A DNA stretch of 64,000 nt from a bacterium (GCA_030649135.1 JAUSGI010000006.1:1-64000); one strand, 5' to 3'; numbered from the stretch's first letter, positions 30,453 to 47,325 are shown. Notes: a model not told the origin generated them from the letters alone. Program-made: numbers and translations.

Positions 30453-30462
30453 GGGTGAAGAA

Positions 30463-30678
30463 CTACCTATTCTTCAGGCCGTAATAGGCGAGATATCCGG
30501 CAATTACTATGCCCGCATAGCTTACCCACATCGGAATGTCAGAGGACCCGAAAGTAACAGACATGCCGTTAATTATCCTCCAGAGATGCATGACGGCCAC
30601 GACAAGAAAGACCAAACCCACCAGCAAATTAAAAGTTTTCTGGTTCATGATAATTGTGTTATCTTTTAAACCCCTCAA
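30463..30678 (-). CDS. Small two-helix membrane protein
   Basis: Two hydrophobic helices; no family recognised. Confidence 0.35.
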   Translation of the reverse strand: MRGLKDNTIIMNQKTFNLLVGLVFLVVAVMHLWRIINGMSVTFGSSDIPMWVSYAGIVIAGYLAYYGLKNR

Positions 30679-30700
30679 TTATACCCCATTTCCGGTAAGA

Positions 30701-31573: not shown

Positions 31574-31642
31574 TTACTTATTCTAGCATGAGTGCCAACT
31601 CCGTTGGAATTACGCCCTATTTCTGTTATTATTTGGCATTAT

Positions 31643-31714
31643 TCCGCGGTGGCGCAGTGGTAGCGCAGGCGCCTGTTAAGCGCTTGGTCGTAGGTTCGAA
31701 TCCTACCCGCGGAG
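31643..31714 (+). tRNA. tRNA-Asn (GTT)
   Basis: TCCGCGGTGGCGCAGTGGTAGCGCAGGCGCCTGTTAAGCGCTTGGTCGTAGGTTCGAATCCTACCCGCGGAG cloverleaf, anticodon loop CTGTTAA. Confidence 0.85.
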
Positions 31715-33409
31715 CAAGGTTGAACGCACAGGCACGAAATCTTCATTTAAGATTGAAGTGTCTATAATATTTTCAGGTTCGAACCGAGGGTATTTTGTTT
31801 TGGCTGTAAGTAGGCCATTCATAATCACTCCATAGAGATTTGTGTTGTGAACATTTGGCTTTTTATCTTTAATTGTTAGGTTCGAACCTATCTCCGCGAA
31901 TGCCTCTTTTTTCTCCTCCGGGCCTCCATTCTTGAATATTTCCTCGATACCGATAGCCAGATTAAACGCCTTATATGCCTTTTGGAGCCCACTTTGGTCC
32001 ACATGCTCTAGTTTACCTAACTCTCGCTTCCAAGCCTCAATTTCGCCCCTTAAGGTCTCTTTAATCCCCATGAACTCGTCGTCAGTCAGTTGTCCTCGCA
32101 CCCTCATAAGCGCCAGCTCCTTCTGTTCATGTTGTTTCTGGTCTAATGTTTTTCGGAGAGACGTTTTTCTTTCAAACTCATTTTGCTTGTCATCCTTCTC
32201 AAGAGCAGTGATGTTTTCAATACACCAATCGCTCAGTGCTTTTGATATTTTTAGCTTACTTCCGTAGTAATCAGCAAGGTATTTATCGATCGCAACTTCT
32301 TCAACACACTTTTCTTTGCAGTTTGGATTTTTCTTTCTAGTGCAGTGATAGTAAATGTAGTGTAGGTATAATGGGGTTTCTATATCTGTAATAAGTACGC
32401 TACATTTCGGACATTTTTCTTTGTCTCGGTAAGAGAACTTTAACTTGCAATCACAGATCACTTGATATTTATGTTCAGCCGTAACACCTCCGCCACAACC
32501 TCCACATCTTGTTGTCGGATCTTTATATGGAAACATTTCTAGATTTACAGACGGTCTCTGTCTGCCTTTGTTACCCATAATCTTCTGTATGTGCCAATAA
32601 TTCTCATCTGTGATCATTCGGGGAATACTCTCGTGTAGTTTGTGTCTCTCTCCATCCTTAGTGAAGAAGAACCCAGCATAGACAGGATTTTTTAGGATTG
32701 TGCCTGCTATGTATGAGAGAACGAGTTTTTTCCCGCCCTGTCTTTTTCTTAATGGGGTGCGAAGACCCATCTCCTCATTTGCAATTCTTAAGAGTTTTCT
32801 AAATGAGTACCGGCCGGTCAGATAGAGTTCGAGCAACTGCTTTATGAGTGGAAAACGATCTTTATCCACTAACCAACCCCTATTACCTCGCTCTTTGGAG
32901 AGATCATTTATAAAACCTATAGTAGCAACGCCGTTAGGATAGCCCTTGTCTGCCCGCTCTCGTATACCTCTCTTTGTGTCAGTGCTTAGGTCGCGCACAT
33001 ATTGATTGGCCATACCAAGCTCAACAGACATGATGAGTACATTGTCGTCCGGGTAGTAGCTACGCCCGTAAGTTTGAATATGCTTTACTACGCTCTGTTG
33101 AAGCATCCAACTGATAGTGCCACCGTCCACAGGATTTCTTGCTAGACGATTTATTTTCCAAACAATTATCCCGTCTGCTTCACCTTTATTAAGTCGACTA
33201 ATCATATTTGTGAACACAGGTCTTCCGGGTGCCTTAGCCGACATTGATTCTTGAAGTATTTCAACAATCTCAAGTCCGTTCTCCGTTGCTAGTTCTTTGA
33301 GAACTTTTATCTGGTCTGGTATTGATTGCACTTGTCGATCCTCTGCATCACTCGACTTTCTCACATACATGAAGTACTTAAGTTTTCTGTCGTGTGTTTT
33401 ATTTATCAT
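31703..33409 (-). mobile_element. Large serine recombinase (integrase) of a tRNA-Asn-associated integrative element; its 3' end overlaps the tRNA 3' end
   Basis: N-terminal resolvase catalytic domain YVRKSSDAEDRQ...SIPDQ, recombinase domain, Cys-rich zinc ribbon and long coiled coil. Confidence 0.85.
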
Positions 33410-35546
33410 CTAATTTTCTGTTTACCCCAATAACAACATTACCGCTAGGTTCTGACAAGTCCAGCCCTTGTTTTTCGGCCACAACGCCTTGCCGGTCATA
33501 TTCTCGAACATGATGCCCTACCACATCCAAGTCAACTTTTGTTTTAGAGAGAGTATTTTCCCGCTCCGGCTCTGCCAAAATCAGCGAATCTTGGGAACAA
33601 GAGATGATGTTTGAAGAATCAGGGTTTTCTGTCGATTTCGTTTCTCGTTTTTCTCGTCCCGTATATATATGGGGAACAAGAGAACAAGAATAGAGATAGG
33701 GGTCGTTGCGCTTTCCAGCACCTGTACGTTGCACCGACCCTTTGGTAACTAAATCCCGTAACGCCTTACGCTTTAGTCCCGTGCGACCCTCGACCTCGTT
33801 TTCGATGGCCTTTTCGATAGATGACTCCTCTTGCTCGGATAGAAAAGTGAGAATCTCATCCGCAACACGCTGTATATCGTCATCTTCCTTCGTACCACCG
33901 AGAGACGTTGTCTGGGTTGTCTCATCGAATAGCAACACCGTCGACTCCGTATCTGTGCCGTAGCGTTGTTGGGTCTCGATGGTCCGTTTACCCTCGGTTC
34001 TTTTGAGAATAATCGCTGTATCGACAGAGCCAAATATTGCTGTCGAGCCAAGAACAGAATCGCCACCGCTCCTGTCACCTTTGCCCGCATGATGCACAAC
34101 CATCACATGCGCTCCATGCTCTCTGGCAAGCGTAAGCAATGGCGAGAGTGCTGCAGTCACTTCTGCGTAGTCGTTGCCATTTCTAATCGAGACGAAGCGA
34201 AATAATGTATCGATAATAACGAGCACAGGCTTGCGGGCGACAATTTCTTTCTCAAGCCATCTAGATGCTTCTTGAGGAACTGAACCAATATATGTGTACA
34301 AATCTTCACTACCTGTCGCTCCGAGCAACTTGAAGTGATTTTTAACCTCGCTTCGTTTTTCCTCAAGCGAAACATACAGGACAGCACCTTTTGTCGTTTG
34401 GCGACCAAGAAATATCTCGCCCTGCGCGACATAGAGTGCTAACTGCCTCGCGAGCGTTGACTTACCGACCTTTGGTTTCGCGACTATCATGGAAAATCCG
34501 CTTGTAGGAAGTAACCCATCAACGATCCAGCTTGTCTCTTCATCCGGCTCGTTCAGAAGTGTGCCAAGAGAGGTGAAGCCGAATTTTTCACGAACGACTT
34601 CTGCCGATTCTACAGCTGTTTTTACCGCAGAAGGACCCCGAAGTATATATAGGTCATTGAAATCAGTTGTAGTCCCTCCGTTGATTGTTTCACCATCCTC
34701 AAATTTCGGAATCGCTAATCGTGCGCCAATATTTGCCGCCTCTCTCGCTTTCAAGAGTCCGTTAGTATCAGCATCGGCACAGATAATTATTTCTGCATTT
34801 GGAAATTTCTTCCGCATTTCCTCAGCCGTTGCTCTTAGATTCGTGGAAGAAAATGAGATTGCTGTGGCATACCCTGTGGCCTCAAACACACTCGCGCCGG
34901 TGGCAAATCCTTCCACGATGCACAGTCGTTCCATTGGCACTCCTATGAGAAAGAAGCACTTTGCTGTTATAGCTTCACTCAGGAATTGTTTACCTCCATC
35001 AGCATCAATGAACTGTATAGACGAGAGAAAGCCGTTACCAGTGTAGAGCGGTAGTACCAGCTTGTTTCTCTTAAAACGAACTCCGTGTGGTAAAACTTGT
35101 TTCTTTTTGAGATATGGGAAGTCGACGGGTGCTTCGCTTGCAGCCTCCCAAATTTCTTGAGCATTTAGGGCGCCTGTGTGTTTTTCACTTCTTTGCGAAT
35201 CCTGTTTCTCCATAGCTGGCCGATGATAAATACCGTCTCCAAGATGTCGTGCAAACATAGTGAAATTTCCCTTTGCGTCGCACTTCTTGCAGTGGTATAA
35301 ACCTGTTTCGGAGGCAATGTATAGATGCGCCTCGTTGCCTTTGCTATCTCTGTCACAATCACCGAATATACAGTGGGTGATAAGTTCACCGTTCACTTCG
35401 CGAAATGGTATGTTTTTATTAGAGAGATACTCACGAACGGCGAGATATTCGTTTATTGCGTTGTTTTTCATGTACAGTCGGAGTTTCTTATTGAAATCCT
35501 GGTGTCCGACTGTACGTTCTTTCACCAGAACTTCAATAAAAAACAA
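33399..35546 (-). CDS. Bifunctional primase (zinc-finger + Toprim) / P-loop helicase (AAA_25/RepA-like), replication protein of the element
   Basis: CHC2-like HCIFGDCD...HCKKCDAKG zinc finger, Toprim CIVEGFATGASV...ICADADTNG, Walker A VAKPKVGKST and Walker B VLVIIDTL; 11-nt overlap with the recombinase gene. Confidence 0.75.
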   Translation of the reverse strand: MFFIEVLVKERTVGHQDFNKKLRLYMKNNAINEYLAVREYLSNKNIPFREVNGELITHCIFGDCDRDSKGNEAHLYIASETGLYHCKKCDAKGNFTMFARHLGDGIYHRPAMEKQDSQRSEKHTGALNAQEIWEAASEAPVDFPYLKKKQVLPHGVRFKRNKLVLPLYTGNGFLSSIQFIDADGGKQFLSEAITAKCFFLIGVPMERLCIVEGFATGASVFEATGYATAISFSSTNLRATAEEMRKKFPNAEIIICADADTNGLLKAREAANIGARLAIPKFEDGETINGGTTTDFNDLYILRGPSAVKTAVESAEVVREKFGFTSLGTLLNEPDEETSWIVDGLLPTSGFSMIVAKPKVGKSTLARQLALYVAQGEIFLGRQTTKGAVLYVSLEEKRSEVKNHFKLLGATGSEDLYTYIGSVPQEASRWLEKEIVARKPVLVIIDTLFRFVSIRNGNDYAEVTAALSPLLTLAREHGAHVMVVHHAGKGDRSGGDSVLGSTAIFGSVDTAIILKRTEGKRTIETQQRYGTDTESTVLLFDETTQTTSLGGTKEDDDIQRVADEILTFLSEQEESSIEKAIENEVEGRTGLKRKALRDLVTKGSVQRTGAGKRNDPYLYSCSLVPHIYTGREKRETKSTENPDSSNIISCSQDSLILAEPERENTLSKTKVDLDVVGHHVREYDRQGVVAEKQGLDLSEPSGNVVIGVNRKLDDK

Positions 35547-36027
35547 AGAATTAATTTATAATTGGTTTGACTATTGAACGTCTTTCCTCTGCCCGGGCAA
35601 GAGCAACACTAGCCAGTCGAGCAAGTCTCAACAGAGATACACCAAAAACCTGAGTTTCATCTTCACTCATTTGTTTTCCGTAATCTTTATAGAGAATAAG
35701 CCGAAGCTTCTCTATGGCTTGAGGTGAAAGAGTTACCATGCCGCGATCTCGTGGCTGTAGTGTGCGGTAACTTAAAAGGCTGCCACCGCATCCCACAACG
35801 TGAGATGAAATGGCAGCCCCTCAACTTTGCCTGCCCAGCGGGGTCCCACCCCCGATTTACTATCCTCGGGCTTATCCGGGGATACCTTGATACACCCCAC
35901 ATTGGCATGTATCAAGAGGTACGCTAACTTACTCAGTATAACAAAGTTTTGCTGATAAGTATGTGTAGATATCCACAGTAATAATGCTAGACAGAAAAAA
36001 GTTTGATACAATGTAATTGCTCTCGTG

Positions 36028-36583
36028 CATTAAGGGTGCATGAGCAAGGTCAGAAATGATAGCAACCGGCACTCAATTCAGATATGGCCTAAGTACCTAC
36101 GATAAACAAGTTTGAAGGAACCATCGTTTTGACTGGTACTTAGGTAGGGAGGAGGGTAAAACCAACTCCAAACCTTAGTCCCTTAAACTTTGGTTTGGGT
36201 GTCAGGCTGAAAAGTCTTACTCCTGAACTGAGTGCCGGTCATAGTGATGGTTCCTTTTGCTTATCCGTGGTCTAAAGGCAATAGGCTATGAAAAAGCTGG
36301 CTAGGCACATTTAACCCCACTGCCATTAACAACGGCACAATTTGGGGGCTGACAAATCTTGGGGCGTGGAACTTCTTCGCTCTACAGCATGTTGTCAGAC
36401 AGCAGCAGGCAACGATCAACGTACTGACCGCAAGGTTGGCACAGTTGGAAAATCGTCTCCCTGCTCCCGCACAGGCATCGCGGCCTCTATTGCCTAATAC
36501 GAATAATCGCCGTCTACCGTAAGGTAAACAGCGATTACTCTGGATTAAAGCAGGTGTCCCGAAAGGGACGCTTGCTTTTTATT
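36028..36583 (+). ncRNA. Candidate large structured non-coding RNA (unclassified) within a ~1.1 kb ORF-free region (35560-36640)
   Basis: No credible ORF; nested long-range helices (36066-36081 with 36224-36239; 36088-36097 with 36135-36144; inner 36099-36103 with 36123-36127), many local hairpins, putative promoter TAGACA-N18-TGTAAT around 35987-36020, strong intrinsic terminator at the 3' end. Confidence 0.3.
36549..36583 (+). terminator. Rho-independent terminator with GAAA-capped stem (possibly bidirectional)
   Basis: agcaggtgtccc-gaaa-gggacgcttgct followed by tttttatt. Confidence 0.6.
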
Positions 36584-36638
36584 ATACCCCCGCCAGTAAC
36601 GGCGAGAGCAACCAATTTACCCTACCTGTGTATAACTA

Positions 36639-37157
36639 TCAAGCTGTGCCTGATTCTGGCTCATATTCATACTGTTTGCGTACCTCCCGCATACTAACGG
36701 GGCGATAGTTCTCCGCATCTTCTATCATGCTGATTCTCGGCATTATTGCCATGTTTTCTGGTATGGACGTGTCAAACTCTTCACGACGCTTCCTTGCCAG
36801 ATACCACATAGCTACCTTTGGGTCCGTTTCTAGCCGGTCCACAATGGTCTTTCTAGCTCTTAGTACAGGCATTTGTCTAAGAGCCTCAATTATATGGGAA
36901 AACTCCGGATGCTTCTCTACGAAATACTTATACTGATCTATTGAAATACCTGCTGAAAAGCACGCTTCTTTGATAGTTGCATCGTATTTGAAGGCGGTGA
37001 TTAAGCGGAGGACTTTTCCCTGATCACGATACCAGGCGTTGGCTGAGTTTTCGACCCGCAAAATGCCAAAAGCTCTGTCTTTAATGGTGTACGCGTACTG
37101 ATCTAACTTAGTTACTTCTAATACTTGATGGGTAGTGATTTGGTTTTGGTCTGTCAT
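36639..37157 (-). CDS. Hypothetical protein with a putative HTH
   Basis: ...TIKEACFSAGISIDQYKYFVEKHPEF... HTH-like segment; no firm family. Confidence 0.4.
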   Translation of the reverse strand: MTDQNQITTHQVLEVTKLDQYAYTIKDRAFGILRVENSANAWYRDQGKVLRLITAFKYDATIKEACFSAGISIDQYKYFVEKHPEFSHIIEALRQMPVLRARKTIVDRLETDPKVAMWYLARKRREEFDTSIPENMAIMPRISMIEDAENYRPVSMREVRKQYEYEPESGTA

Positions 37158-37197
37158 TCAAGCATTATATCTCAACTTCTATAGCCAGAGAACTATC

Positions 37198-38019
37198 TTA
37201 ATACCAACAGAACTCAGCTTTTTCTCCTATCTGATCTTCAACGTACTTCGTAGCAGTCGTGATATCTCCAATCTCATCAATCAGTCCAGACTTCAAAGCG
37301 TCCTCGCCTATATAGGTTAATCCATTAGCCAGACTCTCAACAGCCTTTAATTCAAGGCCTCTGTTCGTTGCCACATCCTTGACAAAAACATTGTGAGCCT
37401 TGCGGACGTCAGATAATAGAATCTCCTTTTCTTCCTGTGTTAATGGTTTGTTTGGATCACCAGTATCCTTATATTTAGCAGAAGAGAGTTCTACGAATGT
37501 GTAACCGTCCTTTGCGTTTTTATTGGATTCATTTAGATAAGAAGCTGTTACCCCAATACCTCCCACATCAGAGATTTTAGAAGCGTATATTTTATCCGCA
37601 CCGGTAGCCGCCCAGTAGGCAGCCGAAGCTCCAATACCTCGTATGACAGCCACGCTTGGTTTATCAAGACTTTTTAATGCTCGCGCTATTTCCTCTCCAG
37701 CTACTCCATCACCTCCGGGTGAGTCAATCGACAACATCACTGCTTTGATATCTGGATCATTTTGAGCACGTAGTATCCCATACACGATATCTTCTGACGA
37801 GGAAACATCCACTTCCTGTCCCTCTGGCTGGCTTGGTAAGTATGTACTCAAGTACCCTTTGATTGAGAATGCCAAGACATTACAGTCATCCTGTTGTAAT
37901 GAGTCAGTGATAGTAGTCTCTTCAGAAAAGTATGATCCTGCAAGAAAAGCCAGCACTCCAATAACTACAGCTAGTATGAGTACTTTCTTCTTGCTGATCT
38001 TTTTCTCCTCGTTCATATT
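37198..38019 (-). CDS. Signal peptide peptidase SppA-like serine protease (S49 family), membrane-anchored
   Basis: ...SIDSPGGDGVAGEEI... and ...GIGASAAYWAA... S49 motifs; TM anchor; start taken at MNEEKK (the ORF could extend to 38094). Confidence 0.65.
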   Translation of the reverse strand, partial: NMNEEKKISKKKVLILAVVIGVLAFLAGSYFSEETTITDSLQQDDCNVLAFSIKGYLSTYLPSQPEGQEVDVSSSEDIVYGILRAQNDPDIKAVMLSIDSPGGDGVAGEEIARALKSLDKPSVAVIRGIGASAAYWAATGADKIYASKISDVGGIGVTASYLNESNKNAKDGYTFVELSSAKYKDTGDPNKPLTQEEKEILLSDVRKAHNVFVKDVATNRGLELKAVESLANGLTYIGEDALKSGLIDEIGDITTATKYVEDQIGEKAEFCWY

Positions 38020-38032
38020 CAAGATTATAGCT

Positions 38033-38473
38033 CTATTTCTTAATATATTCCCTATTCCTTTCCTTATGTCTTTCAATGATTCTCTGTGGATCAAAGGCTT
38101 TGCTTAATGGCATTGATGTTTCGAATTGAAAACTATTTTTAATGGCAGTCATAAGCTCCGGCCATTCCGGTATATATTCGCTATCAATCTCCTCATCAAT
38201 AGCTTCAGATATTTTACGTATTATTTCATCTTCATATATAGAGGTGTAATCATCTGTATCCATAAGATCACTAAGAGCGTCATCGTGGTACCTCTTAAGA
38301 AGAGCTAAATTAAGTTCCTCTGCTTTTTTTAGATTTTCCATATCAGCATCCAATGCTAGTCTCAGAATCACATTGCTCTTAAAGCTTTGGTATTTAGATA
38401 ATCTGTCAATCGTTCTAAGGAGTCTAAACCAGAGGATGAATAATACGGCAAGTAGTATATAGATTAATGTCAT
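38033..38473 (-). CDS. Hypothetical membrane-anchored acidic protein
   Basis: N-terminal TM helix, acidic C-terminal region. Confidence 0.4.
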   Translation of the reverse strand: MTLIYILLAVLFILWFRLLRTIDRLSKYQSFKSNVILRLALDADMENLKKAEELNLALLKRYHDDALSDLMDTDDYTSIYEDEIIRKISEAIDEEIDSEYIPEWPELMTAIKNSFQFETSMPLSKAFDPQRIIERHKERNREYIKK

Positions 38474-38475
38474 AA

Positions 38476-39417
38476 TTAATAAAAGATTGGCTTTTCACAA
38501 TACCAAGAATAGTTAGTCGGGTTTTTGTTAACACACTCTTGATATTGTTGCTGTTGGTATAGTTTGTATTCTAGATCGCTTTGTGGAGTATTAGTCCCGC
38601 ATTTAACCTCCCTGATTCTTCTTTGTTGTTGCGGAGATAGAGTTCGTAGTTCTGGCGGAGTAGGTTCTAATAAACAATCTGATTGTTGTTTTTGGGCTGT
38701 TATTGACTGTTGTTGCTGTTCACTTTTTGCCTTGTTATATTTCTCAACCTGAGCATCAATAAGTATTCGAAAACTCATATTACTCATGTAGCCATCGAGA
38801 AATTTAGAGTCTTTGCACGTTAGTGAGTTCACTTCTGGAACTTCCCCGCACATTTTAAACAGAGCACCCAGTTGTTGTGCCGTGGGAGGGGTAGCATACG
38901 GTTGTTGTATTTCCGCTTTGCTGTTCTTGCGAACCCACTGATTGCTTTCCTTTCTGTAGTATCTTTCTTCCCTCTGACGAGTAATGGAAATGGATGTCCA
39001 TCCCTTTGAATCAGCTTCGATGAAGAATCTTCGCTCCAGACTTTCCCAGGTCTCGACAGCAGGTGTCGCGATGTTTGAAGTAGTTATATTATTTATCGGT
39101 AGTGTCTCTTTTTCTATATTGTTTGCAGTAGACTGTTTCTCTTTTAACTTTTCTACCTCTCTTTTCAGCTTTTCAATTTCAACACTTTGATTGTCTACTA
39201 CGGGTACTGGTTGTACTTTTTCTGTAGTTACTGTTGGTTTTTCTACTTTATTCGGAACTACTACCGAAGAGGTTGCACTCTCGCTCGGCACTGGTTGTTC
39301 GATTTTTACTTCTTGCTTCTTATTAAATATTCTCCATGTAAATGGATTCCACCATGCCGCAAAAGCCACCTGAGGAATTATTATCGCAAGTAGGATTATT
39401 GGAATTATTTTTTTCAT
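38476..39417 (-). CDS. Hypothetical secreted protein with coiled coil and Gln/Cys-rich C-terminus
   Basis: Signal peptide MKKIIPIILLAIIIPQVAFA; heptad region; eight Cys in the C-terminal 100 aa. Confidence 0.5.
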   Translation of the reverse strand: MKKIIPIILLAIIIPQVAFAAWWNPFTWRIFNKKQEVKIEQPVPSESATSSVVVPNKVEKPTVTTEKVQPVPVVDNQSVEIEKLKREVEKLKEKQSTANNIEKETLPINNITTSNIATPAVETWESLERRFFIEADSKGWTSISITRQREERYYRKESNQWVRKNSKAEIQQPYATPPTAQQLGALFKMCGEVPEVNSLTCKDSKFLDGYMSNMSFRILIDAQVEKYNKAKSEQQQQSITAQKQQSDCLLEPTPPELRTLSPQQQRRIREVKCGTNTPQSDLEYKLYQQQQYQECVNKNPTNYSWYCEKPIFY

Positions 39418-39632
39418 AATTTTGGGGGAATTTCGTCGACTTTCTTTTTGTTAAGTTTGTAGTTCAAGTGAGAATAAAGAACTATGCCTAGTGGCCAGAT
39501 TAATGCTCCTGCCAAGGCCGCAATGATTTTGTTCATATTGTGTCTCTGAGCAACTCTATAACAATAAACACCAGACCAAATAACCATCACCACACCTACT
39601 AAGTACAGAAGACCACCTAGTACAGATCCCAT
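39414..39632 (-). CDS. Small two-TM membrane protein
   Basis: Hydrophobic 72-aa ORF, translationally coupled (4-nt overlap) to the downstream gene. Confidence 0.4.
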   Translation of the reverse strand: MGSVLGGLLYLVGVVMVIWSGVYCYRVAQRHNMNKIIAALAGALIWPLGIVLYSHLNYKLNKKKVDEIPPKL

Positions 39633-39657
39633 TTTATTTTAGTGATTATTTATAACA

Positions 39658-39791
39658 CAAAGCCCGCTACCAGGAAGGCGCCTTTCGACCACCTCTACCA
39701 GAGTTTCCCCTGGTAACGCGACGAACGCCCTGATAACGGGTTCTCTATGTTCGTCGCGCTTTCTTGCCATGCCGGTGGTTGCCCGGTTTAG
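39658..39791. repeat. Structured repeat element, copy 1 (~134 nt, GC-rich), upstream of a minus-strand operon
   Basis: Shares aaagcccgc..gtttccc..gcgaNNaaNcg.ccct.a.acgggtt..NttNNtcg.c..ttgccatgccggtg..cccggtttagg with copy 2; 9-bp stem gcgacgaac/gttcgtcgc. Confidence 0.5.
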
Positions 39792-39907
39792 GTTTGTCGC
39801 ACATCCACAGTTGCATAATTCTATGGATGTTCTGAAAAGTTGAGCTTCGTTAGAGTCCTGTTTCTTATCTGATACTCTAGCTAAGGTAATTGCTTTCATA
39901 AAGTATT

Positions 39908-40678
39908 TTAGTAGTAAATATCTTTAAGCAATTTAGCGTTGTAACCAGAATTTTCAAAGATATATTTAGCATAACTCTTTTGACCTTCCGTAACAGCTTT
40001 GTCAGCTTCTTCTTTGCTTAAAGAAGGATCCAGCCAATACCAACTAGGATAATCTCCTAACTGCTTATTAGAAGATACATCGTAAATCTTGTCTGATTTT
40101 TTCGTGTAATACTCGCTTTTTACGTTGTTATAATTACTGTAATCGTAACTATAATCAGTAGTATAAAGGCAAGTGTTCATTGAAGGACTGTAGAAAATAA
40201 AATTTAACTCTTCTTTTTCTGTTACAAAAGTGGTGTTTTTATATTTTTTAGAAAGTTCATCTTTGATGTTACTGGTTAATTTCGCACATTCAGTGTTTTT
40301 ACTAAACAAAGTATCTTTATCAATTTTAGAGTTCTTAACCAAGTCCGCTACATCCTTTTTTAGTTGAGCAAGTATATCCTTCGTAGCTGGGTCTGCTTTA
40401 ATTTCATCCGACATTGTAAGTATCAATGTGTTCTGTATTTTTGAGTCTTCCTTGTCGGCTTCTTCAGCAACCTTTTTTATTCTTTCATCAACTATCTTGT
40501 ATTTATCTTCTGGCAAAAGACTTTTATAAACATTTAAGTACTTATAAAATTCAACATCTTCGTTTGTACCAGAGTCTGCAACTTTGATAGAAGACATATT
40601 GGTTTTTCCTTTAACAAAAGGTATTCCGAGCCAAACAATTATTACCACAAGAACAACGATAATTATATTTTTAATCAT
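39908..40678 (-). CDS. Hypothetical secreted/membrane-anchored Lys/Asp-rich protein
   Basis: N-terminal signal anchor; low-complexity lysine-rich sequence. Confidence 0.5.
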   Translation of the reverse strand: MIKNIIIVVLVVIIVWLGIPFVKGKTNMSSIKVADSGTNEDVEFYKYLNVYKSLLPEDKYKIVDERIKKVAEEADKEDSKIQNTLILTMSDEIKADPATKDILAQLKKDVADLVKNSKIDKDTLFSKNTECAKLTSNIKDELSKKYKNTTFVTEKEELNFIFYSPSMNTCLYTTDYSYDYSNYNNVKSEYYTKKSDKIYDVSSNKQLGDYPSWYWLDPSLSKEEADKAVTEGQKSYAKYIFENSGYNAKLLKDIYY

Positions 40679-40687
40679 ATTATTTTG

Positions 40688-40990
40688 TTATTTATTAAAT
40701 TCAAACCGACCGAAGAACCAAGAGAGTAAGCTTCTACTCCTCATTTTAAAGAAATAGCTTATGGAAATATAACCTGTCACTGCTGATATAAATCCCTCAA
40801 AAATACTTTCGGTAAATAGATAAATGACTATCCCAATGATGATCAGGGATAGGATGACTATGAATAGGTCAGCTAGTTTGGCCAGAATATAACGTACGAA
40901 TAGTTGACCACGACCCCTCTCCTTTATTGCTCTTAATTCTTCAAGGGCATCTCTCGCTATACCGTTAGCTTTAGATATATGTTCTTCCAT
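40688..40990 (-). CDS. Small membrane protein (start taken at MEEHISK; upstream in-frame extension lies in the repeat element)
   Basis: Two TM helices; the N-terminal 33 codons of the longest ORF are encoded by repeat copy 2. Confidence 0.4.
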   Translation of the reverse strand: MEEHISKANGIARDALEELRAIKERGRGQLFVRYILAKLADLFIVILSLIIIGIVIYLFTESIFEGFISAVTGYISISYFFKMRSRSLLSWFFGRFEFNK

Positions 40991-41029
40991 ATTGTTGCTT
41001 GATCGTCTTGTAATCTTTTGCGGGCACAA

Positions 41030-41151
41030 AAAGCCCGCCACAGGTAGAGGCCGAGGCCCCTCATACCGGTTTCCCGATATGGCGATCAAGCGACCCTATG
41101 ACGGGGTTTTTACCTTGATCGACTTTTTGCCATGCCGGTGCCCGGTTTAGG
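41030..41151. repeat. Structured repeat element, copy 2 (~122 nt)
   Basis: Homologous to copy 1 with compensatory changes in the main stem (gcgatcaag/cttgatcg); extra hairpin gcgggc-acaaaaa-gcccgc at 41021-41040. Confidence 0.5.
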
Positions 41152-41276
41152 CCTATTTTCTTCACACTACCATTTTACCAGTTTTACAGAGTTAAGCTAA
41201 TGGCCTCAAATGTTCTCCTTCGAGCAGGGCAACTAAAGGTGGCAAAAGCGGTAGTGCACGGTATACTTCTTCTAAA

Positions 41277-42497
41277 ATGTTATATACCAAGCCCATTACT
41301 GAAATTACTTATGTCGATGTCATTGACTTCTGCAAACAGTCGTTAAAAGAGAATATAAACCTGGACTACAAGCTGGATGTCGATACTGGCATAGCCAAGA
41401 CCATAGCGGCAATGGCTAATACTTGGGGTGGGCTGATTGTGGTCGGTGTTGAAGACGAGGATAGTAAGCCCAAGCTACCTGTCGAGGGTATTCCATATCG
41501 CGAGCACATTGAGGAGCAGATAAACAACATTATTCTAGGTAATATCACTCCGCCAACCTTTCCAGAAGTTAAGGTGTGCCTGTCTGAAAATAAAGAGAAA
41601 ATGTTTGTGGTAATCAGGATTCCACAAAGCAATCTCACGCCTCATGCTATTAGGGGCAATACCAGAGTCTACATCAGAACCAATACTAGCAATGAACCTG
41701 AAGAAGAAATAACTATAGAAAAGTTAGGGTGGTTAGTTGATAAGCGAAAAAAGTCACTCGACCTGAAAGAACAACTACATCAGGAAGCTGATAGACGGTT
41801 TGAAAAACTATGCAGGATACAAGGAATAAAAAATTTTAGACATAACGATGTTAGTCTTATGACGTCTCCTCTATATCCATTCGAAATTCTAACTAAAAAG
41901 GAGCAACTTATCAGGGAGATACCTGAAAGGATGCGGACTGAAGCCTGGGGTAGATACTTCCCAAAGACTTTACATAGAACAAGCTACGAAGCTATTAATG
42001 GCGGTAGTTATGCCTTTATCTCGAATGGTCAGTCAGGATACTTTCTATATGAGGAATTTAATCATTACGGTCTTTTTTATCATAGGGAAGATTGGTGTAA
42101 AAGTGATAAAGATGAAGAAACTGGAGAAATCAAGCACACAGGTTTTTTGCATAGCTATTTATCCGAGATAGACCTAATGATTGAATCCGCAAGTAAATTC
42201 TATTCTGCAGTAGGATACTGGGGTCTTGTCGAAATAAAAGTTATTGCCAGAGAGTTAGAAGAAGTCAATTTTAGGGATTTACCAGCTCCAAAAGGTTTCT
42301 ATAAATTCGATAAACTTGAGAAGAGACCCATTGATAATAATCTTGAATTTACCAAAGAAGTTTCGGTCAGAGAACTGGTAGAAAAAAGGGTGGCACTAGT
42401 AACATATTTGATGCTCGATTTGAGCTGGGCACTTGGCTTCACTCATATCGATGAAGAAGGTATAGGAAGACTTCTAGAGGAGCAGGGTCGTCTCTAG
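41277..42497 (+). CDS. AlbA_2 (Schlafen-like, 'divergent AAA / putative DNA-binding') domain protein
   Basis: N-terminal ...IAKTIAAMANTWGGLIVVGVEDED... AlbA_2 signature; long uncharacterised C-terminal domain. Confidence 0.6.
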   Translation: MLYTKPITEITYVDVIDFCKQSLKENINLDYKLDVDTGIAKTIAAMANTWGGLIVVGVEDEDSKPKLPVEGIPYREHIEEQINNIILGNITPPTFPEVKVCLSENKEKMFVVIRIPQSNLTPHAIRGNTRVYIRTNTSNEPEEEITIEKLGWLVDKRKKSLDLKEQLHQEADRRFEKLCRIQGIKNFRHNDVSLMTSPLYPFEILTKKEQLIREIPERMRTEAWGRYFPKTLHRTSYEAINGGSYAFISNGQSGYFLYEEFNHYGLFYHREDWCKSDKDEETGEIKHTGFLHSYLSEIDLMIESASKFYSAVGYWGLVEIKVIARELEEVNFRDLPAPKGFYKFDKLEKRPIDNNLEFTKEVSVRELVEKRVALVTYLMLDLSWALGFTHIDEEGIGRLLEEQGRL

Positions 42498-42689
42498 AAT
42501 AGTCATTTTGGCTCTTACGTGCACAGGACCATCTGAAGCATTGTGTCCGGTACCTCTTTCTCCTAGTAGTTCTGTACTATCATGGCAGTTCTTCCTAATG
42601 CTCGTTCTGGCTCCCTGTGATCGTTTCTGGTGCGAGTTTATCTTCCGTTGAGAAACCCGACAAAGAATCAGGACCAGAGACAGATATGG

Positions 42690-45203
42690 TCACTCTGAAA
42701 GTGAAACATCTAAGGATGACCTGAAATTTTCTATATTTTTATCTCTGATACTTTGGAAATATCCGTTGAAATCTGTCGGGGTAAGGAAGTTGAATTTGTA
42801 TGATATGCCTTTCTTATTCTTTCGTAAATACGCATTTATCCTTTCAAAATGAGCGAGCGCATATTCGTTTTTCTTTTTGTTCTCCACGGACGGCTCGCTA
42901 ATCTCGTCGTCGTCTTTAATCTCAACAATCAAAATCAACTTGCCGGTCTTGATAAAAAAGTCGGGATTGAATTTTCCACGCTTTGGATGTTCGCCTTTCT
43001 TCCAAAAATAATCAATCTCGTAGAAACTCATCGGCGTTGATTTAATCCATGCGTCAATGTGTTGCGTGTTTTCGGATTTTACTAGCTCTTTAACGAATCT
43101 GCGCTCATTGTCATGATCCGAGACAACAGCATTGAGCGGTGTTTTGAAATCATAATGATTGGCGACTTTTGCGCACTTAAACCCGCTCCCTTCCTCCACG
43201 GCTTCTTCGTAAAATTCTTTATACTCATCCGGCATATTTTCTTTCGTTTTGCTTGTATAGAAAATCGTTTTGCCATTTTTCAGGTCGGATGCGCTTGCGC
43301 TCTCCTGCGGTCGCTCGGTCGTTAATATCGGATAGTAATTTGTCGGCTCAAAATCATAGCGAACCACTTGCGCTGCTTTTCTTTGAAGCGTTCCGAGCGA
43401 CTGCAAAAACTTTTGCCGCATATTTTCGGTAATAACCTTGTTGTCTGTTTCTTTAAGCGATTTTTTTACAATTTCCTCCAGTTTTTCAACGGGAAATTGC
43501 TTTATGTAAAATTTGCGGTCTTCGCCGTCCACCAAATCCTCAAACCGCTGGAACATCACCTCGGCAACTTCGTGCGTGGTATAGGTCTTATGCTTGATTT
43601 TCGTTTTCCATTGTGTCCGCACGCCGGTATCTGCTTCCTCAAACTCAACTGTCATATCCTCCACAGGAAGTTCCGTTGAAAGATCAACATAACCCTTTTT
43701 GAATAACTGATATGGCTTCTCCATTTTGTAAGTTTCGGTGCGCGGCTTCGGATCGTACTCAATGTTCAGCAGTTCAAAATTAAATTCGGACGAGGTAACT
43801 GGAAATGTTGGTATTCGTTTTTCAAATTCCAAAACTTCATGGACAAGGTGTCGTATGTCATCCGCCCATCTATCATGATTGAAAACAGTTACTTCCGGTT
43901 GCGCGCCTTTCCAGCCGTCCGGCACGCGTAAGCCGCGCCCAAGCACTTGAGCGATAAGCAACTTACTTTCAAACGCTCTTTTTTCGTGGGGGACAATTTG
44001 AAAAACGCGTTTTACATCCCAACCCTCGTTGAGCATGGAAACCGACAAAATCCACTCGACCTTACTGTTTGCGTTGTTTACGCTTGCGAGGCGCGGCAAA
44101 TCTGGTGCGTCGCTATGAATAACAAGCACCTGTTCGTCAATCTGCTCTCGGCTTTTGCCGGTCTCTTCTTTCAAAAACGCTTTGAATTTTTCTGCTACAT
44201 CTTTACACCCACTAATATCTTTCGTAACGATAATTGTAAGCGGGCGCAATTTATGCGCTTTCAATTTGCGCCTTATTTCTTCGTGGTGATTAAGTACCAA
44301 CTGCCACTTTTCTGTTTCCGGTTGTCTCGTCTGCGGCATTTCGGCAACATACTGCACTTTCTTAACAAATTTTTCTTCCATTGCTTGCCGCAACGAGTAA
44401 CGATAAATCACATCGGAAAAATACTCGTTGCCGAGATAGCAAGTGCCAGAAACGCCAATGACATAACGAAAGCCGTAATCTGGATCGGTCAAAAATTCCT
44501 TCCACTTTTTCGCTTTGCTCGCCACTTCGTTTGCGACATGGTGCGTCTCGTCGTTCAAAATGAGTGTCCTGTCTCCTTTGCCCTGCAGGCTGTCGCGGAT
44601 TGACGAGCGCACATGAGCGAGAATTGCGTGATAGTTTTCTATACAAATACTGCCAGATACAATGCTTTCGCTCGCGTTTATGACGTGCGGAGCGTTCACT
44701 GCTGCGTTTGCGGGTAAAAGGTCGCGCAAGTCGGCGTTTCCTGCCAGTAGCTCAAATTTTTCCAGCAATCCGGTCTCTATCGTCGTGGACGGACACAACA
44801 CTAAAACTCTATCAACCGCGCCCTCGGCAAGCATGATCGCCGCAATGCCATACATCACATAGCTTTTGCCCGTGCCGGTCGCCAAATCAAGCGAGGCGGC
44901 GAGTTGGTCCGGCAATTGCAAATACCGTTCCAGATTTCCGATTGAGCCGTATTTATCGCGCAAAACTTCGTTATGCTCAAAATTCTTTCCAGCCAAATCG
45001 CGCAAATCCCGATACTCGCCGCCGAGTAAATACCGCGTAGCGGCGCGGATTGCGTCTTTTTGATACTCACGAATGCCGCAAAGCTCATCAAGAAACGCCT
45101 CGTACTTATTTTCGTCCCATTTGCGACGATCAACCGAAGTGCTGACATCAAGCACTAGGTCTTCATTATGAAATCGTTTTGTTCCGTTTGTTCTTCTTGG
45201 CAT
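42690..45203 (-). CDS. res: Type III restriction endonuclease, Res subunit
   Basis: SF2 helicase motifs (TGTGKSY Walker A, LNDETHHV DEAH box), C-terminal nuclease region; immediately downstream of mod. Confidence 0.85.
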   Translation of the reverse strand: MPRRTNGTKRFHNEDLVLDVSTSVDRRKWDENKYEAFLDELCGIREYQKDAIRAATRYLLGGEYRDLRDLAGKNFEHNEVLRDKYGSIGNLERYLQLPDQLAASLDLATGTGKSYVMYGIAAIMLAEGAVDRVLVLCPSTTIETGLLEKFELLAGNADLRDLLPANAAVNAPHVINASESIVSGSICIENYHAILAHVRSSIRDSLQGKGDRTLILNDETHHVANEVASKAKKWKEFLTDPDYGFRYVIGVSGTCYLGNEYFSDVIYRYSLRQAMEEKFVKKVQYVAEMPQTRQPETEKWQLVLNHHEEIRRKLKAHKLRPLTIIVTKDISGCKDVAEKFKAFLKEETGKSREQIDEQVLVIHSDAPDLPRLASVNNANSKVEWILSVSMLNEGWDVKRVFQIVPHEKRAFESKLLIAQVLGRGLRVPDGWKGAQPEVTVFNHDRWADDIRHLVHEVLEFEKRIPTFPVTSSEFNFELLNIEYDPKPRTETYKMEKPYQLFKKGYVDLSTELPVEDMTVEFEEADTGVRTQWKTKIKHKTYTTHEVAEVMFQRFEDLVDGEDRKFYIKQFPVEKLEEIVKKSLKETDNKVITENMRQKFLQSLGTLQRKAAQVVRYDFEPTNYYPILTTERPQESASASDLKNGKTIFYTSKTKENMPDEYKEFYEEAVEEGSGFKCAKVANHYDFKTPLNAVVSDHDNERRFVKELVKSENTQHIDAWIKSTPMSFYEIDYFWKKGEHPKRGKFNPDFFIKTGKLILIVEIKDDDEISEPSVENKKKNEYALAHFERINAYLRKNKKGISYKFNFLTPTDFNGYFQSIRDKNIENFRSSLDVSLSE

Positions 45204-45205
45204 AA

Positions 45206-47077
45206 TTATTTTTTAGCTTTGGCACGAAGCACTTTTGGTGTAATGACAATGCGTGATTCGTTGCCGTAAATATCCAAAAATACGAGCATGACATCACCTT
45301 TAATTTCTTTGGTGGGTAGCTCTATTTTCCACTTGTTATCTTTTATCGCGCTCGCGTAAAACGCTTTATCCAAATCAAATACCTTTCCGTTGTAATCGTA
45401 ATCTACCATCACCATTGAAAGCGCGTCGTGCTTGCTAATTTTATCCTCTCCGCGCAGTCGCGCCTTGCTCTCAAACTTCTTTATTTTAACAGACACGGCT
45501 TGTTTCTTTGCGGCAAGCTCAAGCTCAACTACCGGCGGCTGGATAAAATCAAAACCCACCGCCTCAACGGTTTCGTTGATAGCCATTTCGTCGTTTGGCT
45601 GAACGAGCGCGGAAAATTTACGTCGGTGCAGTTCGTTGATAAAAGAATACGGAATACGAAGCGCGTAATATCGCACACCGTCCATTTCGAGATAATCCTC
45701 TTGGAAAAGGAACGCGCCGCGCGGAGCAATAATAAAGCAACGATCTCCAACGGCTTTTCCAATGCTTGCGTGCAAGTCTGCTATTGTCTGCTGGCTAATC
45801 TGTCCTTCCTTAAAATGATTGAAAACATGAACGCTTGAACCTTGTCGCTTGCCATCCATTTGGAAGCCATGAATTTTGTGTGGCTCGTCTTTGCACTCAA
45901 AAAGCTGGAGCGCAAAAAATCGCCAATCTTCCCACGGCAAATTTCTCAAATTCTCAAAATCATACAAACCAGCGTTATAAAGTGTGAACGGCTTGGCGGC
46001 AAGCGACTCACCAGTATTGCTGATATTTTTGCGTAAAGTTAGCATTCGTTTTTGAATGGTATAAACTGCGAGCTTACTTACATCAATTGCAATCCAGCGT
46101 CGCTCTAACTTTTCGGCTGTCGCGGAAGTCGTTCCCGAACCCGCAAAAACATCCATAACAATATCACCTTTATTTGAGGAAGCTTCAATAATGCGCTTAA
46201 TCAATGCCTCTGGTTTCTGTGTCGGAAAATCAACTCGCTCTTTTGAATCCGCCTCTGTACCTAAAGGATAAATATCTTCCCAAACATCCCTACATACAGA
46301 ATTGTGATACCACTTTTGTTTGTCTTTATCGAAAAATTCAGGATATTTTTCACTAAAGTTATATTTCTTTTGCTGATACGATTTGTAGTATTGTGTGTTA
46401 AAAAGAAAATTACCGTTTTTTGCGTAGTAATAAATATTATCGTGTTTTCTGGCAAAGAAATTTTTACTTACACCACCAGTCCTATAACTCCAAATAATCT
46501 CATTTATAAAATTTTGTTCTCCAAAAATTTCATCCATTAAAACTTTTATGTAATGGCCTTTCCTATAATCAAGATGCACATAAATTCCACCATCATTTGC
46601 GAGTAACTCTTTTAAAAGAATAAGCCTCTTTCGCATAAATTCTAAAAATGCGCTGCCAGCAATTTTATCTTGATATGCTTTTTGATCTTGGCTTCCTTTG
46701 AAATCTCGCCGTGTTGAAAATGGTGGATCAATGTAAATAAGCCGAACGCCCGGCGTGCCGTCGGCGTTCACCAGCTTTCCATCTGCTTTCATTTGCAAAA
46801 GCGTCTTTATAGCCTGCAAATTGTCGCCAAAAATAAGTTTGTTGTGCCAATCAACCCCGTTCTGTCCAAAAGTGCTGACTTCTTGAAACGGCACAGCCAT
46901 TGTGTCGGCGAGAATTTGCTCCTCGGTTTCTTTGCCGTTGTAGACAAGTTCGTACTCGCGGCGTTCGGGCGGAAAAAACTCTCGCGCCCACTCTGCCGGA
47001 AGTTCCTCGCCGGTTTCGGTCAGCTTGAGTCCTCGTTTTAGCAACTCGTATATCTTTTCTTGACGACGTTTGTCCAT
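45206..47077 (-). CDS. mod: Type III restriction-modification methyltransferase, Mod subunit (N6-adenine, beta class)
   Basis: Motif IV LIYIDPPFS precedes motif I VMDVFAGSGTTSA. Confidence 0.85.
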   Translation of the reverse strand: MDKRRQEKIYELLKRGLKLTETGEELPAEWAREFFPPERREYELVYNGKETEEQILADTMAVPFQEVSTFGQNGVDWHNKLIFGDNLQAIKTLLQMKADGKLVNADGTPGVRLIYIDPPFSTRRDFKGSQDQKAYQDKIAGSAFLEFMRKRLILLKELLANDGGIYVHLDYRKGHYIKVLMDEIFGEQNFINEIIWSYRTGGVSKNFFARKHDNIYYYAKNGNFLFNTQYYKSYQQKKYNFSEKYPEFFDKDKQKWYHNSVCRDVWEDIYPLGTEADSKERVDFPTQKPEALIKRIIEASSNKGDIVMDVFAGSGTTSATAEKLERRWIAIDVSKLAVYTIQKRMLTLRKNISNTGESLAAKPFTLYNAGLYDFENLRNLPWEDWRFFALQLFECKDEPHKIHGFQMDGKRQGSSVHVFNHFKEGQISQQTIADLHASIGKAVGDRCFIIAPRGAFLFQEDYLEMDGVRYYALRIPYSFINELHRRKFSALVQPNDEMAINETVEAVGFDFIQPPVVELELAAKKQAVSVKIKKFESKARLRGEDKISKHDALSMVMVDYDYNGKVFDLDKAFYASAIKDNKWKIELPTKEIKGDVMLVFLDIYGNESRIVITPKVLRAKAKK

Positions 47078-47325
47078 TCAATTCATCATACCCCAAAACA
47101 TCTCTATTCGTCTTGCATTGCCAATATATGTATTATCTATCCTCATACTGTCATTGTGGCTTGCTGTGGTCCTCTGGGGCGCGAGTTTTGTGCTATTTTG
47201 TAGTTACGCCTTGTTGGCCCGAAATCTCACTATATTGCCCTAAAGCACACGTTCTAACTTCGTTCAACATGCGGAGCCAGTCAGAATTTGGCAAGGTTTT
47301 GGGAAAAGAAAAACTTTGAACTACA

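Follow-up and report, generated by a model that had tools for sequence, protein, structure and literature searches.

The locus examined here raises two questions: how the gene of a large serine recombinase comes to overlap the 3' end of an intact tRNA-Asn(GTT) gene, and where the DNA behind that recombinase ends if it is mobile. It lies within 64,000 nt of a bacterium (GCA_030649135.1, JAUSGI010000006.1:1-64000); this whole stretch is called the window, and all positions are those of the window unless a related locus is named. The original prediction, made from the sequence alone, had placed an integrative island at 31643-47077 with a right-hand boundary that was not obvious. The analysis leads us to conclude, with a probability of about 0.9, that 31714-47273 is one integrative mobile element of 15.56 kb in the genome of a member of the Patescibacteria (Candidate Phyla Radiation, CPR), integrated at the 3' end of tRNA-Asn(GTT) through the large serine recombinase (LSR; SR for serine recombinases in general) that it encodes. 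To our knowledge, mobile elements of these organisms are poorly characterised, and we know of no genetic tools for them. Among the searchable papers, the Patescibacteria literature treats islands, restriction-modification (RM) systems and prophages in general terms only.

In the proposed mechanism, the recombinase would pair the attP site of the element with the tRNA end and exchange strands at a GA dinucleotide. The element would supply the same last bases, so that the tRNA would stay intact and no long repeat would arise. The episomal form would give a recombinase of 592 aa ending in ...TLLRMLNEVRT..., and the integrated form one of 568 aa ending in ...TLLRG and a stop codon. The primase-helicase of the element would replicate the excised circle, two LOOT RNAs would head operons for membrane and secreted proteins, an SppA peptidase among them, and a Type III RM system and an AlbA_2 protein would be cargo.

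Genes for tRNAs were called with ARAGORN and Rfam, and protein domains with Pfam, NCBIfam, PHROG and PADLOC. An alignment of 44 recombinase homologs was used to scan species-representative genomes, which yielded 80 loci, and host relatives were retrieved through the VanY protein of the window. Related loci and contigs are numbered L001 to L119, and clusters of SR homologs carry numbers with the letter P. Homologs number in the hundreds in Patescibacteria metagenome-assembled genomes; an exact look-up of the window protein itself returned no record.

A serine integrase at the end of tRNA-Asn

The stop region of the recombinase gene overlaps the tRNA 3' end by 12 nt in the Rfam coordinates and by 13 nt in those of ARAGORN, and the complement of the acceptor and T stem provides its four final codons, L-R-G-stop. 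Within the protein, the Pfam Resolvase domain (PF00239, 4e-19) covers residues 13-156 and is followed by the Recombinase domain (PF07508, residues 186-278; 22.3 bits against a cutoff of 21.1). The YxRxS catalytic motif (Y15, R17, S19) is invariant in the 44-sequence alignment, as are the cysteines C302, C305, C319, C321, C333, C336, C356 and C364, with C396 near-invariant. PF13408 was recorded for several homologs and gave no match in the window protein. The match to PHROG integrases reaches 2e-45, and the SR profile matches the SPbeta integrase structure 9dxh (3e-15), aligning to SPbeta residues 16-335, so that by profile alone the SPbeta integrase is its nearest relative of known structure; the single sequence matches isolated catalytic domains only among PDB entries. 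To judge from its sequence, the enzyme belongs to the large serine integrases, whose catalytic and recombinase domains and att architecture it shares. No tyrosine integrase domain (Phage_integrase) was found in the element.

The position at the tRNA is a property of the family. In all 16 informative loci whose SR is at least 50% identical to that of the window, the SR stop region overlaps the 3' end of tRNA-Asn; the tRNA is intact in 11 of these loci and interrupted at the anticodon loop in five, with a group I intron confirmed by Rfam in four of the five, in agreement with PMC13011429. As ARAGORN misses intron-interrupted tRNAs, integrases adjoining tRNAs are under-counted. More distant family members also adjoin tRNA-Asn, and some adjoin Ser, Gln, Tyr, Trp, His or Glu tRNAs. 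On the tRNA (host) side, hpf and def/fmt recur in about 15 loci, which implies that the same conserved chromosomal site has been occupied repeatedly by elements with different cargo.

Some individual loci deserve mention. The four introns (RF00028, 52-82 bits) lie in the anticodon loop of tRNA-Asn at L011 4739-4961, L015 11717-12006, L017 11714-11988 and L018 2910-3215, and all four tRNA genes directly adjoin the recombinase stop codon. In L097 (13984-14057), an SR only 24% identical to that of the window overlaps tRNA-Glu by about 60 nt. A primase-helicase (63% identical), an S49 peptidase and a LOOT RNA accompany it, which implies that the module combines with different integrases and tRNA targets. 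The SR of L001-L006 (85% identical, the closest with fetched context, in at least 24 contigs) ends in ...TLLPN and a stop codon and adjoins GGTTTCAATTCG at about 11690-11720; the flanks beyond this junction vary among contigs, and it may be a secondary site or a rearranged junction.

Element ends and attachment sites

Islands at tRNA genes are usually delimited by a displaced copy of the tRNA end, and the original prediction had advised a search for a direct repeat of 15-25 nt. The window contains no such repeat of the tRNA 3' end at up to three mismatches, generic repeat finding returned families at chance level only, and a scan for mirror images of the P arm of attP with long targets (16-24 nt) gave no standout. 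The attR site was first located by searching 7-mers of the tRNA end. The displaced tRNA fragment at the distal end consists of GCGGAGC only (7 nt, 47271-47277, + strand); its central GA is at 47274-47275, and it is followed by the native tRNA trailer CAGTCAGAATTTGG. The same identity block occupies 31709-31715 (+) at attL, where the crossover GA would be at 31712-31713. The left breakpoint falls within GGAGC at 31711-31715, since homology with the 85%-identical SR gene in its other context (L001) begins at about 31711.

CGTTCAAC, directly left of the attR block, and GTTGAACG, just to the inner side of attL, are exact inverted complements of each other. The reconstructed attP, CGTTCAAC-ATGCG-GA-GCAAG-GTTGAACG, thus has perfect 8-bp inverted arms in the arrangement CGTTCAAC-N5-GA-N5-GTTGAACG. 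Joining the flanks gives an attB of AATCCTA-CCCGCG-GA-GCCAGT-CAGAATT, in which AATCCTA of the tRNA is mirrored by CAGAATT of the trailer (AATYCTR). The junction sequences predicted for the window copy are TTCGTTCAACATGCGGAGCAAGGTTGAACG and CTAACTTCGTTCAACATGCGGAGCAAGGTTGAACGCACAGG for attP and GAATCCTACCCGCGGAGCCAGTCAGAATTTGG and GGTTCGAATCCTACCCGCGGAGCCAGTCAGAATTTGGCAAGG for an empty attB. The crossover probably falls among the four final tRNA bases (GGAG), with GA as the most likely point, which corresponds to acceptor positions ~71-72. It is because of this position at the extreme end that no repeat of 15-25 nt exists and that the tRNA is unaffected; a search for such a repeat is inapplicable here. 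The earlier statement that no direct tRNA repeat marks the right-hand boundary holds, but the boundary itself can now be placed at 47274-75, about 200 nt beyond the end first proposed.

Comparison with other elements defines the same end. The P-arm motif GGTTCTAACNTCGTTCAACATGCGGAGC is found at the far ends of family members in constant orientation and is kept in about 20 elements, among them L095, where it has one mismatch in 24 and lies 17.7 kb away from the tRNA junction of that element; L016, L031 and L035 have diverged forms of it, and it also occurs in 13 metagenome contigs. In the window, the conserved P arm and identity block together occupy 47254-47277, and homology of P-arm-bearing elements with the window stops at 47277-47284 (at 47279 for the 125-nt, 88%-identical match in L108). 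The identity block measures 4-9 nt in the clade, GGAG being the shortest, whereas the distant member L043, an element of 7.8 kb, has a classical 21-nt repeat whose displaced fragment still carries the native tRNA terminator. On these junctions, the element is taken to span ~31714-47273.

Presence and absence among hosts

The left flank of the window consists of core genes (uvrC, uvrA, uvrB, tgt, mreB, a def-fmt fusion, hpf and VanY), and core genes resume on the right with a fatty-acid desaturase, a 181-aa protein, BipA, HisRS and sigma-70. The closest relative, contig L090 of ERZ27247831, with VanY 87-90% identical at the protein level and flanks ~80-83% identical at the DNA level, shares the order uvrA-uvrB-tgt-mreB-def/fmt-hpf-VanY-tRNA-Asn ... 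desaturase-BipA and has no SR. Its DNA homology covers 27437-31715, breaks off precisely where the tRNA gene ends and is not found again until 54094 and 54980, with 5.4 kb of unrelated DNA between its own flanks. L092, also without an SR, has a gene 84% identical to window 48734-49117 at 1.4 kb from its tRNA-Asn. By contrast, the distant host L010, whose VanY is only 36% identical, carries an element adjoining tRNA-Asn with SR 87%, SppA 85% and helicase domain 80% identical to those of the window.

The composition of the element differs as well, with a GC content of 42.2% against 46.6% and a tetranucleotide correlation with the core of 0.81 against 0.96-0.98 for equal-sized core chunks. The proposal of an integrative island rather than core genome is upheld by these comparisons, which had been suggested together with it: SR-less tRNA-Asn sites exist in L090 and L092, the L090 breakpoint coincides with the tRNA end, the composition is atypical, and the att sites are conserved. 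A segment syntenic in all relatives and devoid of att repeats, which would have spoken for ancient core DNA, is not what was found, as L090 lacks the element and att sites are present. These genomes thus have a hotspot at tRNA-Asn, through which RM and other cargo is exchanged between distant lineages.

Two observations concern the flank itself. The tRNA-Asn of the window differs from that of L090 (9778-9853) at about 20 positions in the D arm, anticodon stem and T stem despite a flank identity of ~82%; the window allele is also present in the more distant L091 and L092, and L010 carries the L090 allele. This pattern suggests a replacement of the whole tRNA linked to element traffic. At 28756-30072, peptide deformylase and methionyl-tRNA formyltransferase are encoded as one fused protein by a single 438-aa open reading frame (ORF); L090-L092 share this arrangement, and the genes are separate in L009.

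A recombinase reading frame that spans attP

The SR reading frame crosses the attP core, and the stop codon of the integrated form is provided by the tRNA T-stem. The excised form of the window element would encode the 592-aa protein ending in TLLRMLNEVRTCALGQYSEISGQQGVTTK and a stop codon, with its tail coded at 47275-47193 by a 27-codon tail ORF that is intact. As the attP core lies inside the ORF, the C-terminal tail of the recombinase differs between the integrated and excised states. Read in the SR frame, the P arm encodes L-R-M-L-N-(D/E)-V-R-T-(C/Y). The differences between close members are nearly all synonymous (GAA/GAC/GAT, AGA/CGA, ACN), and distant members keep the tail peptide on different DNA (LHMLYDVRT, LTMLNEVRT, LRIVDDVRT). 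The sequences thus show two encoded SR protein forms and a conserved tail; that the tail influences the activity or direction of the enzyme is our inference.

An attP-type junction, in which the core is followed by the SR 3' end and no host trailer, is present in two of the 13 metagenome contigs with a P arm. In L107, a complete SR ORF of 579 aa continues across the core and into the P arm, and L116 contains a C-terminal SR fragment only. Most SR homologs are of the other kind, since 116 of 120 clusters lack an episomal-type tail and nearly all end as templated by the tRNA (...TLLRG and a stop codon, or read-through into ...QDSNL...). The SR of P0010 ends in TLLRMLNDVRTYA and a stop codon, while P0003 and P0030 have in common a conserved 33-aa extension starting LLALL(K/N)DFRT; in the P0003 contig, the SR leads straight into metal-handling cargo. 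For the predicted recombination of attP with attB, and for the predicted excision with a directionality factor, indirect support comes only from the occurrence of both integrated and attP-type junctions in public data.

Replication module and structured segment

The features of the element are collected in Table 1. The genes named in the original prediction were recovered throughout by the domain and gene searches: the tRNA and the 568-aa LSR on the opposite strand with its 12-nt overlap by ARAGORN, Rfam and Pfam, the linked primase-helicase, the run of secreted and membrane proteins with an SppA-type peptidase, and the AlbA_2 protein and complete Type III mod-res pair (Pfam, PADLOC). The ORF-free structured region of 1.1 kb had to be revised: it is structured, but its first ~190 nt hold a conserved ORF.

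Table 1. Features of the element and its tRNA target
Feature	Position	Strand	Basis or remark
tRNA-Asn(GTT), intact	31643-31714 (Rfam RF00005, 70.7 bits) or 31643-31715 (ARAGORN)	+	3' strand of T-stem/acceptor is left half of attB
Large serine recombinase, 568 aa (integrated state)	31703-33409	-	Pfam Resolvase and Recombinase
Zn-finger/Toprim primase fused to AAA_25 (RepA/DnaB-like) helicase, 715-aa ORF	33399-35546	-	Toprim; AAA_25 1e-34 (Pfam)
Conserved 62-aa ORF upstream of replication gene	35551-35739	-	nhmmer and tblastn conservation
Orphan structured non-coding segment	35797-36638	+	Folding, terminator
172-aa DNA-binding-type protein resembling small terminase subunits	36639-37157	-	phrog_4102 terminase small subunit, 4e-8
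Membrane-anchored SppA-type signal peptide peptidase (S49)	37198-38094	-	Pfam Peptidase_S49, 1e-32
Three ORFs (146, 313, 72 aa), body of LOOT-2 operon	38033-39632	-	N-terminal transmembrane (TM)/signal-like segments; no family match
LOOT RNA copy 2	39675-39794	-	RF03000 61.3 bits (gathering score 46.4); own covariance model 97 bits
100-aa two-TM protein (start MEEH...) and 256-aa N-terminally anchored protein, body of LOOT-1 operon	39908-40990	-	Translations
LOOT RNA copy 1	41046-41153	-	Rfam RF03000 64.7 bits (gathering score 46.4); own covariance model 121 bits
AlbA_2/Schlafen-domain protein	41277-42497	+	Pfam PF04326, 7e-18
Type III restriction subunit (res)	42690-45203	-	Pfam ResIII PF04851 3e-14; PADLOC REase_III 2e-13
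Type III modification methyltransferase (mod)	45206-47077	-	N6_N4_Mtase PF01555 1e-46; PADLOC MTase_III 2e-55
P arm of attP and detached SR-tail coding segment, (R)MLNEVRTCALGQYSEISGQQGVTTK and stop	47193-47275	-	Reconstruction, cross-element conservation

The stop of the primase-helicase gene overlaps the SR start by 11 nt. Its product has a Cys-rich N-terminus and matches PHROG DNA primases (8e-49) and, strongly, PHROG helicases; translation probably begins at the ATG near 35471. Its homologs, 641-667 aa long and built in the same way, adjoin LSR genes. The 62-aa ORF is conserved in L010, L001, L011, L007, L032, L024-26, L029 and L095; it has no family match in PHROG or in relaxed Pfam and NCBIfam searches, and its product is a candidate regulator or directionality factor.

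As this ORF takes up the start of the ORF-poor region (35547-36638), only ~0.85 kb is truly non-coding. The 0.85-kb segment contains no ORF even under TGA read-through and no iterons, has no Rfam match at E values up to 1, and shows no similarity in about 119 related loci (nhmmer) or in the phage database (blastn). The same slot is filled in L010 and L001 by unrelated ORFs of ~240 aa. A pseudogene of these ORFs was considered and rejected, and a comparison with 6,176 ORFs of related loci revealed no decayed remnant of any of them.

The segment may be an element-specific RNA, or an origin or regulatory region acting at the DNA level. Compared with shuffled sequences, it folds with z-scores of -8.6 on the + strand and -9.5 on the - strand. 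A strong intrinsic terminator lies on the + strand at 36547-36585, and the core folds more stably on that strand (-220 against -208 kcal/mol), which makes a + strand transcript of ~0.56 kb (~36020-36585) probable. That the segment works instead as DNA, as the replication origin or regulatory region of the primase-helicase, is a possibility to be taken seriously, if not the one we would favour. Origins of satellites and plasmids usually sit directly upstream of the replication operon, as this segment does; the fold z-scores are equally extreme on both strands, as DNA palindromes would give, and the slot varies between otherwise similar elements. Apart from the terminator and the more stable + strand, the lack of iterons and of an AT-rich unwinding block argues against an origin, and so does the lack of a comparable segment in L093 and L095, whose primases are ~68% identical.

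LOOT RNAs as a marker of the family

Each of the two LOOT RNAs of the window, which the original prediction had overlooked, stands just upstream of a run of genes for membrane or secreted proteins (copy 2 is 38 nt upstream of the 72-aa membrane ORF), so that the secretome block consists of two LOOT-led operons. The Rfam 14 paper names LOOT only as a "metagenomic-based RNA" (PMC7779021), and the accessible text of its source paper, Weinberg et al. 2017, yielded no description. A covariance model was built from five copies and used to search 1.44 Mb of loci, of which 634 kb lie on the element side and 567 kb on the host side of the SR. It found 23 copies, the five model copies included, and all are on the element side; in the SR-less relatives, the model found none. 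Further copies lie inside the elements of L093, L097 and L112. In IMG/VR, a search with a LOOT sequence pattern gave six confirmed copies, four of them with an LSR (26-29% identical) within ~3 kb, which in three of the four cases is immediately adjacent to and divergent from LOOT.

The helices of LOOT are well supported by covariation, with compensatory changes at 30 of 32 base pairs across the 23 copies and 94.9% of cells paired; none of 500 shuffles reached the observed values. The first gene after LOOT differs among elements and is usually that of a membrane or secreted protein. Compared with RF03000, the window copies are alike in scoring above the gathering score, and they differ in having a defined context inside LSR-borne Patescibacteria elements, at the head of membrane and secreted-protein operons. 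An orphan RNA known only from metagenomes thereby gains a genetic home and a testable role.

Cargo genes

Six consecutive ORFs in 37198-40990 have N-terminal hydrophobic or signal-like segments, as read from their translations. Among them, the S49 protein has the N-terminal hydrophobic segment VLILAVVIGVLAFLAGSYF and scores 157.4 bits against the curated cutoff of 155.45 for NCBIfam TIGR00706 (SppA_dom), and thus combines the anchor and score of a 36K-type SppA; it is 82-85% identical in L001 and L010. A reading as prohead protease was rejected in favour of SppA, the ClpP-related head-maturation model giving 32 bits against a cutoff of 120. The 100-aa protein is 71% identical in L001, where it also directly follows LOOT. 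For the small and secreted proteins, relaxed Pfam and NCBIfam searches returned nothing credible. The 172-aa protein has homologs at the same position in L010 (39%) and L001 (33%); its match to phrog_4102 is weak and covers ~85 residues of a helix-turn-helix (HTH) type region, and comparison with PDB sequences gave only noise.

The AlbA_2 protein, which had no match in PADLOC, is cargo, possibly with a function in defence or regulation. The mod and res genes are adjacent, with gene ends 2 nt apart, and form a Type III RM system; the nuclease domain of res (RE_endonuc, PF19778) scores below cutoff, at 17.1 against 23.4 bits. In the related elements L119 (3030-7358) and L007 (577-4846), the place of the RM system is taken by copper- and metal-handling cargo, comprising cupredoxin, HMA, DUF305, P-type ATPase, cation efflux and DsbA/DsbB proteins.

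Alternative readings of the locus

Some of the evidence weighs against an active 15.56-kb element targeted to tRNA-Asn. P0002 (L001-L006), the closest SR homolog at 85% identity, adjoins no tRNA, which shows that target choice is not absolute. The symmetry score of attP (10/16) is not unique, as 94 window positions score at least 10, so it is only together with the identity block, the location and the conservation across elements that it makes the case. No recombination directionality factor was identified, and Pfam and PHROG scans of the element found no relaxase, type IV secretion system, capsid, portal or large terminase. Present-day activity of the window copy would follow from its intact parts only. 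One could suppose that the segment is an old, fixed and immobile island, with an SR that is domesticated or decaying and a tRNA overlap that is a frozen accident; most database copies of the SR are indeed in the integrated state, and no excised form of this exact copy was seen. This is nevertheless very improbable, because a distant host has the element and the nearest relative lacks it, no damage is seen in the catalytic motif, the zinc-ribbon cysteines, the tail ORF or either att arm, the tail-coding arm is conserved at the codon level even though it is translated only in the excised form, and contigs in the attP form exist. Just as little probability attaches to a mobile unit made up of the whole variable block from 31716 to ~54090 (22.4 kb). 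The late resumption of L090 homology at 54094, a tRNA-Asn 3' fragment in direct orientation at 50818-50833 and the atypical composition of 47.3-54.1 kb (r = 0.74-0.80) would fit such a unit, but the P arm and identity block lie at 47254-47277, where homology to 13 other elements stops. The HAD-like gene at 48734-49117 also has its counterpart adjoining tRNA-Asn in the SR-less L092, and the 50818 fragment belongs to a different tRNA-Asn allele and lacks a P arm, while L032, L114 and L002 show tandem accretion.

A phage origin carries more weight, yet it too is unlikely. The element would then be a phage satellite or cryptic prophage remnant, similar to the phage-inducible chromosomal islands (PICI) and SaPI, that is packaged in the capsids of a helper phage by means of its integrase, primase-helicase and small-terminase-like protein. 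An integrase with a primase-helicase module is typical of satellites and is carried here; the 172-aa protein resembles a terminase small subunit (4e-8), the S49 protein matches the head maturation protease phrog_53, and six LOOT-bearing contigs are filed as viral in IMG/VR. However, the terminase-like match is weak, the S49 protein has the membrane anchor and curated score of SppA and falls far below the cutoff of the head-maturation model, and genes for capsid, portal, large terminase, tail or lysis are missing from the window element. They are likewise absent from the gene lists of related elements, which are not full inventories, and IMG/VR searches with the primase, SR and P arm found nothing. 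An integrative element inserted by its own serine integrase accounts best for the locus.

Relation to known systems

The window enzyme resembles the large serine integrases (SPbeta SprA/YokA, phiC31, Bxb1, TP901-1, A118; TnpX, CcrAB) in its catalytic Ser domain, recombinase domain, Cys-rich region and length of ~570 aa, and its att sites are likewise short, with imperfect inverted arms around a central dinucleotide and no long identity block. It differs in that its family is very divergent, targets a tRNA 3' end and has the attP core inside the integrase ORF. The Islander paper (PMC4383910) assigns the 3' end of tRNA genes as target to tyrosine integrases. With tRNA islands (Islander/TIGER; P4-like, SaPI/PICI, and actinomycete integrative and conjugative elements such as pSAM2), the window element has in common an integrase adjoining a regenerated tRNA, distal cargo, a primase/rep module and tandem accretion, but its enzyme is a serine recombinase and not the tyrosine integrase by which that class is usually defined (PMC4383910), its identity block is 4-9 nt instead of ~15-60 nt, and it is without packaging or conjugation genes. 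Likeness to phage satellites extends to the set of integrase, primase and terS-like protein (the terS match being weak, 4e-8) and ends with the lack of a capsid-related gene. In cluster G/P mycobacteriophages, attP lies inside the repressor gene and integration truncates the product. The likeness to these phages lies in an attP inside an ORF of the element, an altered C-terminus upon integration and two state-specific forms; the difference is that the ORF concerned here encodes the serine integrase and a tRNA serves as partner sequence.

The class of the element, an integrative element at a tRNA, is ordinary; what is unusual is the targeting of the tRNA end by a serine integrase, the integrase ORF spanning attP and LOOT as a family marker. 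The family offers candidate integrases with predicted attP and attB sites, reconstructed from junctions, at a universally conserved tRNA end, which would be useful for CPR integration vectors and widen the known target range of serine integrases. The integrase frame spanning attP provides a simple and testable model of state-dependent control of recombination.

A more far-reaching interpretation, which we regard as speculative and on balance doubtful, joins these features into a hitherto undescribed family of CPR integrative episomes that lack capsids, replicate on their own and have a state-sensing integrase, LOOT as a dedicated RNA and an orphan RNA regulator. Only the excised circle would then yield the conserved tail LLRMLN[D/E]VRT..., and only the integrated copy the form truncated by the tRNA, and the state of the tail would bias the SR towards integration or excision, without or alongside a separate directionality factor. 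LOOT would be a cis- or trans-acting RNA switching on the envelope and secreted-protein operons with their own SppA, whose products would remodel the cell surface or mediate vesicle-like or contact-dependent transfer, and the orphan 0.56-kb + strand RNA would be an element-specific regulator.

DNA beyond the element

The DNA from 47276 to ~54090, absent from L090 and atypical in its tetranucleotide composition, is older, variable foreign DNA outside the element. At 50818-50833, it contains TGGTCGCGGAGCCAAG, an exact 16-nt copy of the last 11 nt and 5-nt trailer of the tRNA-Asn allele found in L090 and L010, 3.5 kb past attR. With the trailers of L090 and L092 as probes, this fragment was considered as attR of the window element and rejected; the other allele and the missing P arm before it fit an older, separate insertion, and it is probably the scar of one at the same tRNA. 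Comparable structures occur elsewhere: L002/L003 have a second LSR with its own Type III RM system beside the first element (14049-20774), L032 has a shortened tRNA fragment beside the SR and the full tRNA end 9 kb away, and L114 has two P arms 1.3 kb apart (10635, 11907). These arrangements indicate serial accretion at the same site.

Two further features of this DNA were noted. At 49500-50800, an HTH_31 regulator is followed by an S-adenosylmethionine-dependent methyltransferase matching PADLOC mad2 (1e-17); a pair of HTH protein and methyltransferase also flanks the L001 element, and that of the window may be the remnant of a defence or modification module. At 50955-51260 and 51586-52098, a GC-rich patch (~0.53) in AT-richer DNA contains an 82-aa Cys-rich ORF and a long GC hairpin terminator, followed by a stretch with long open frames on both strands.

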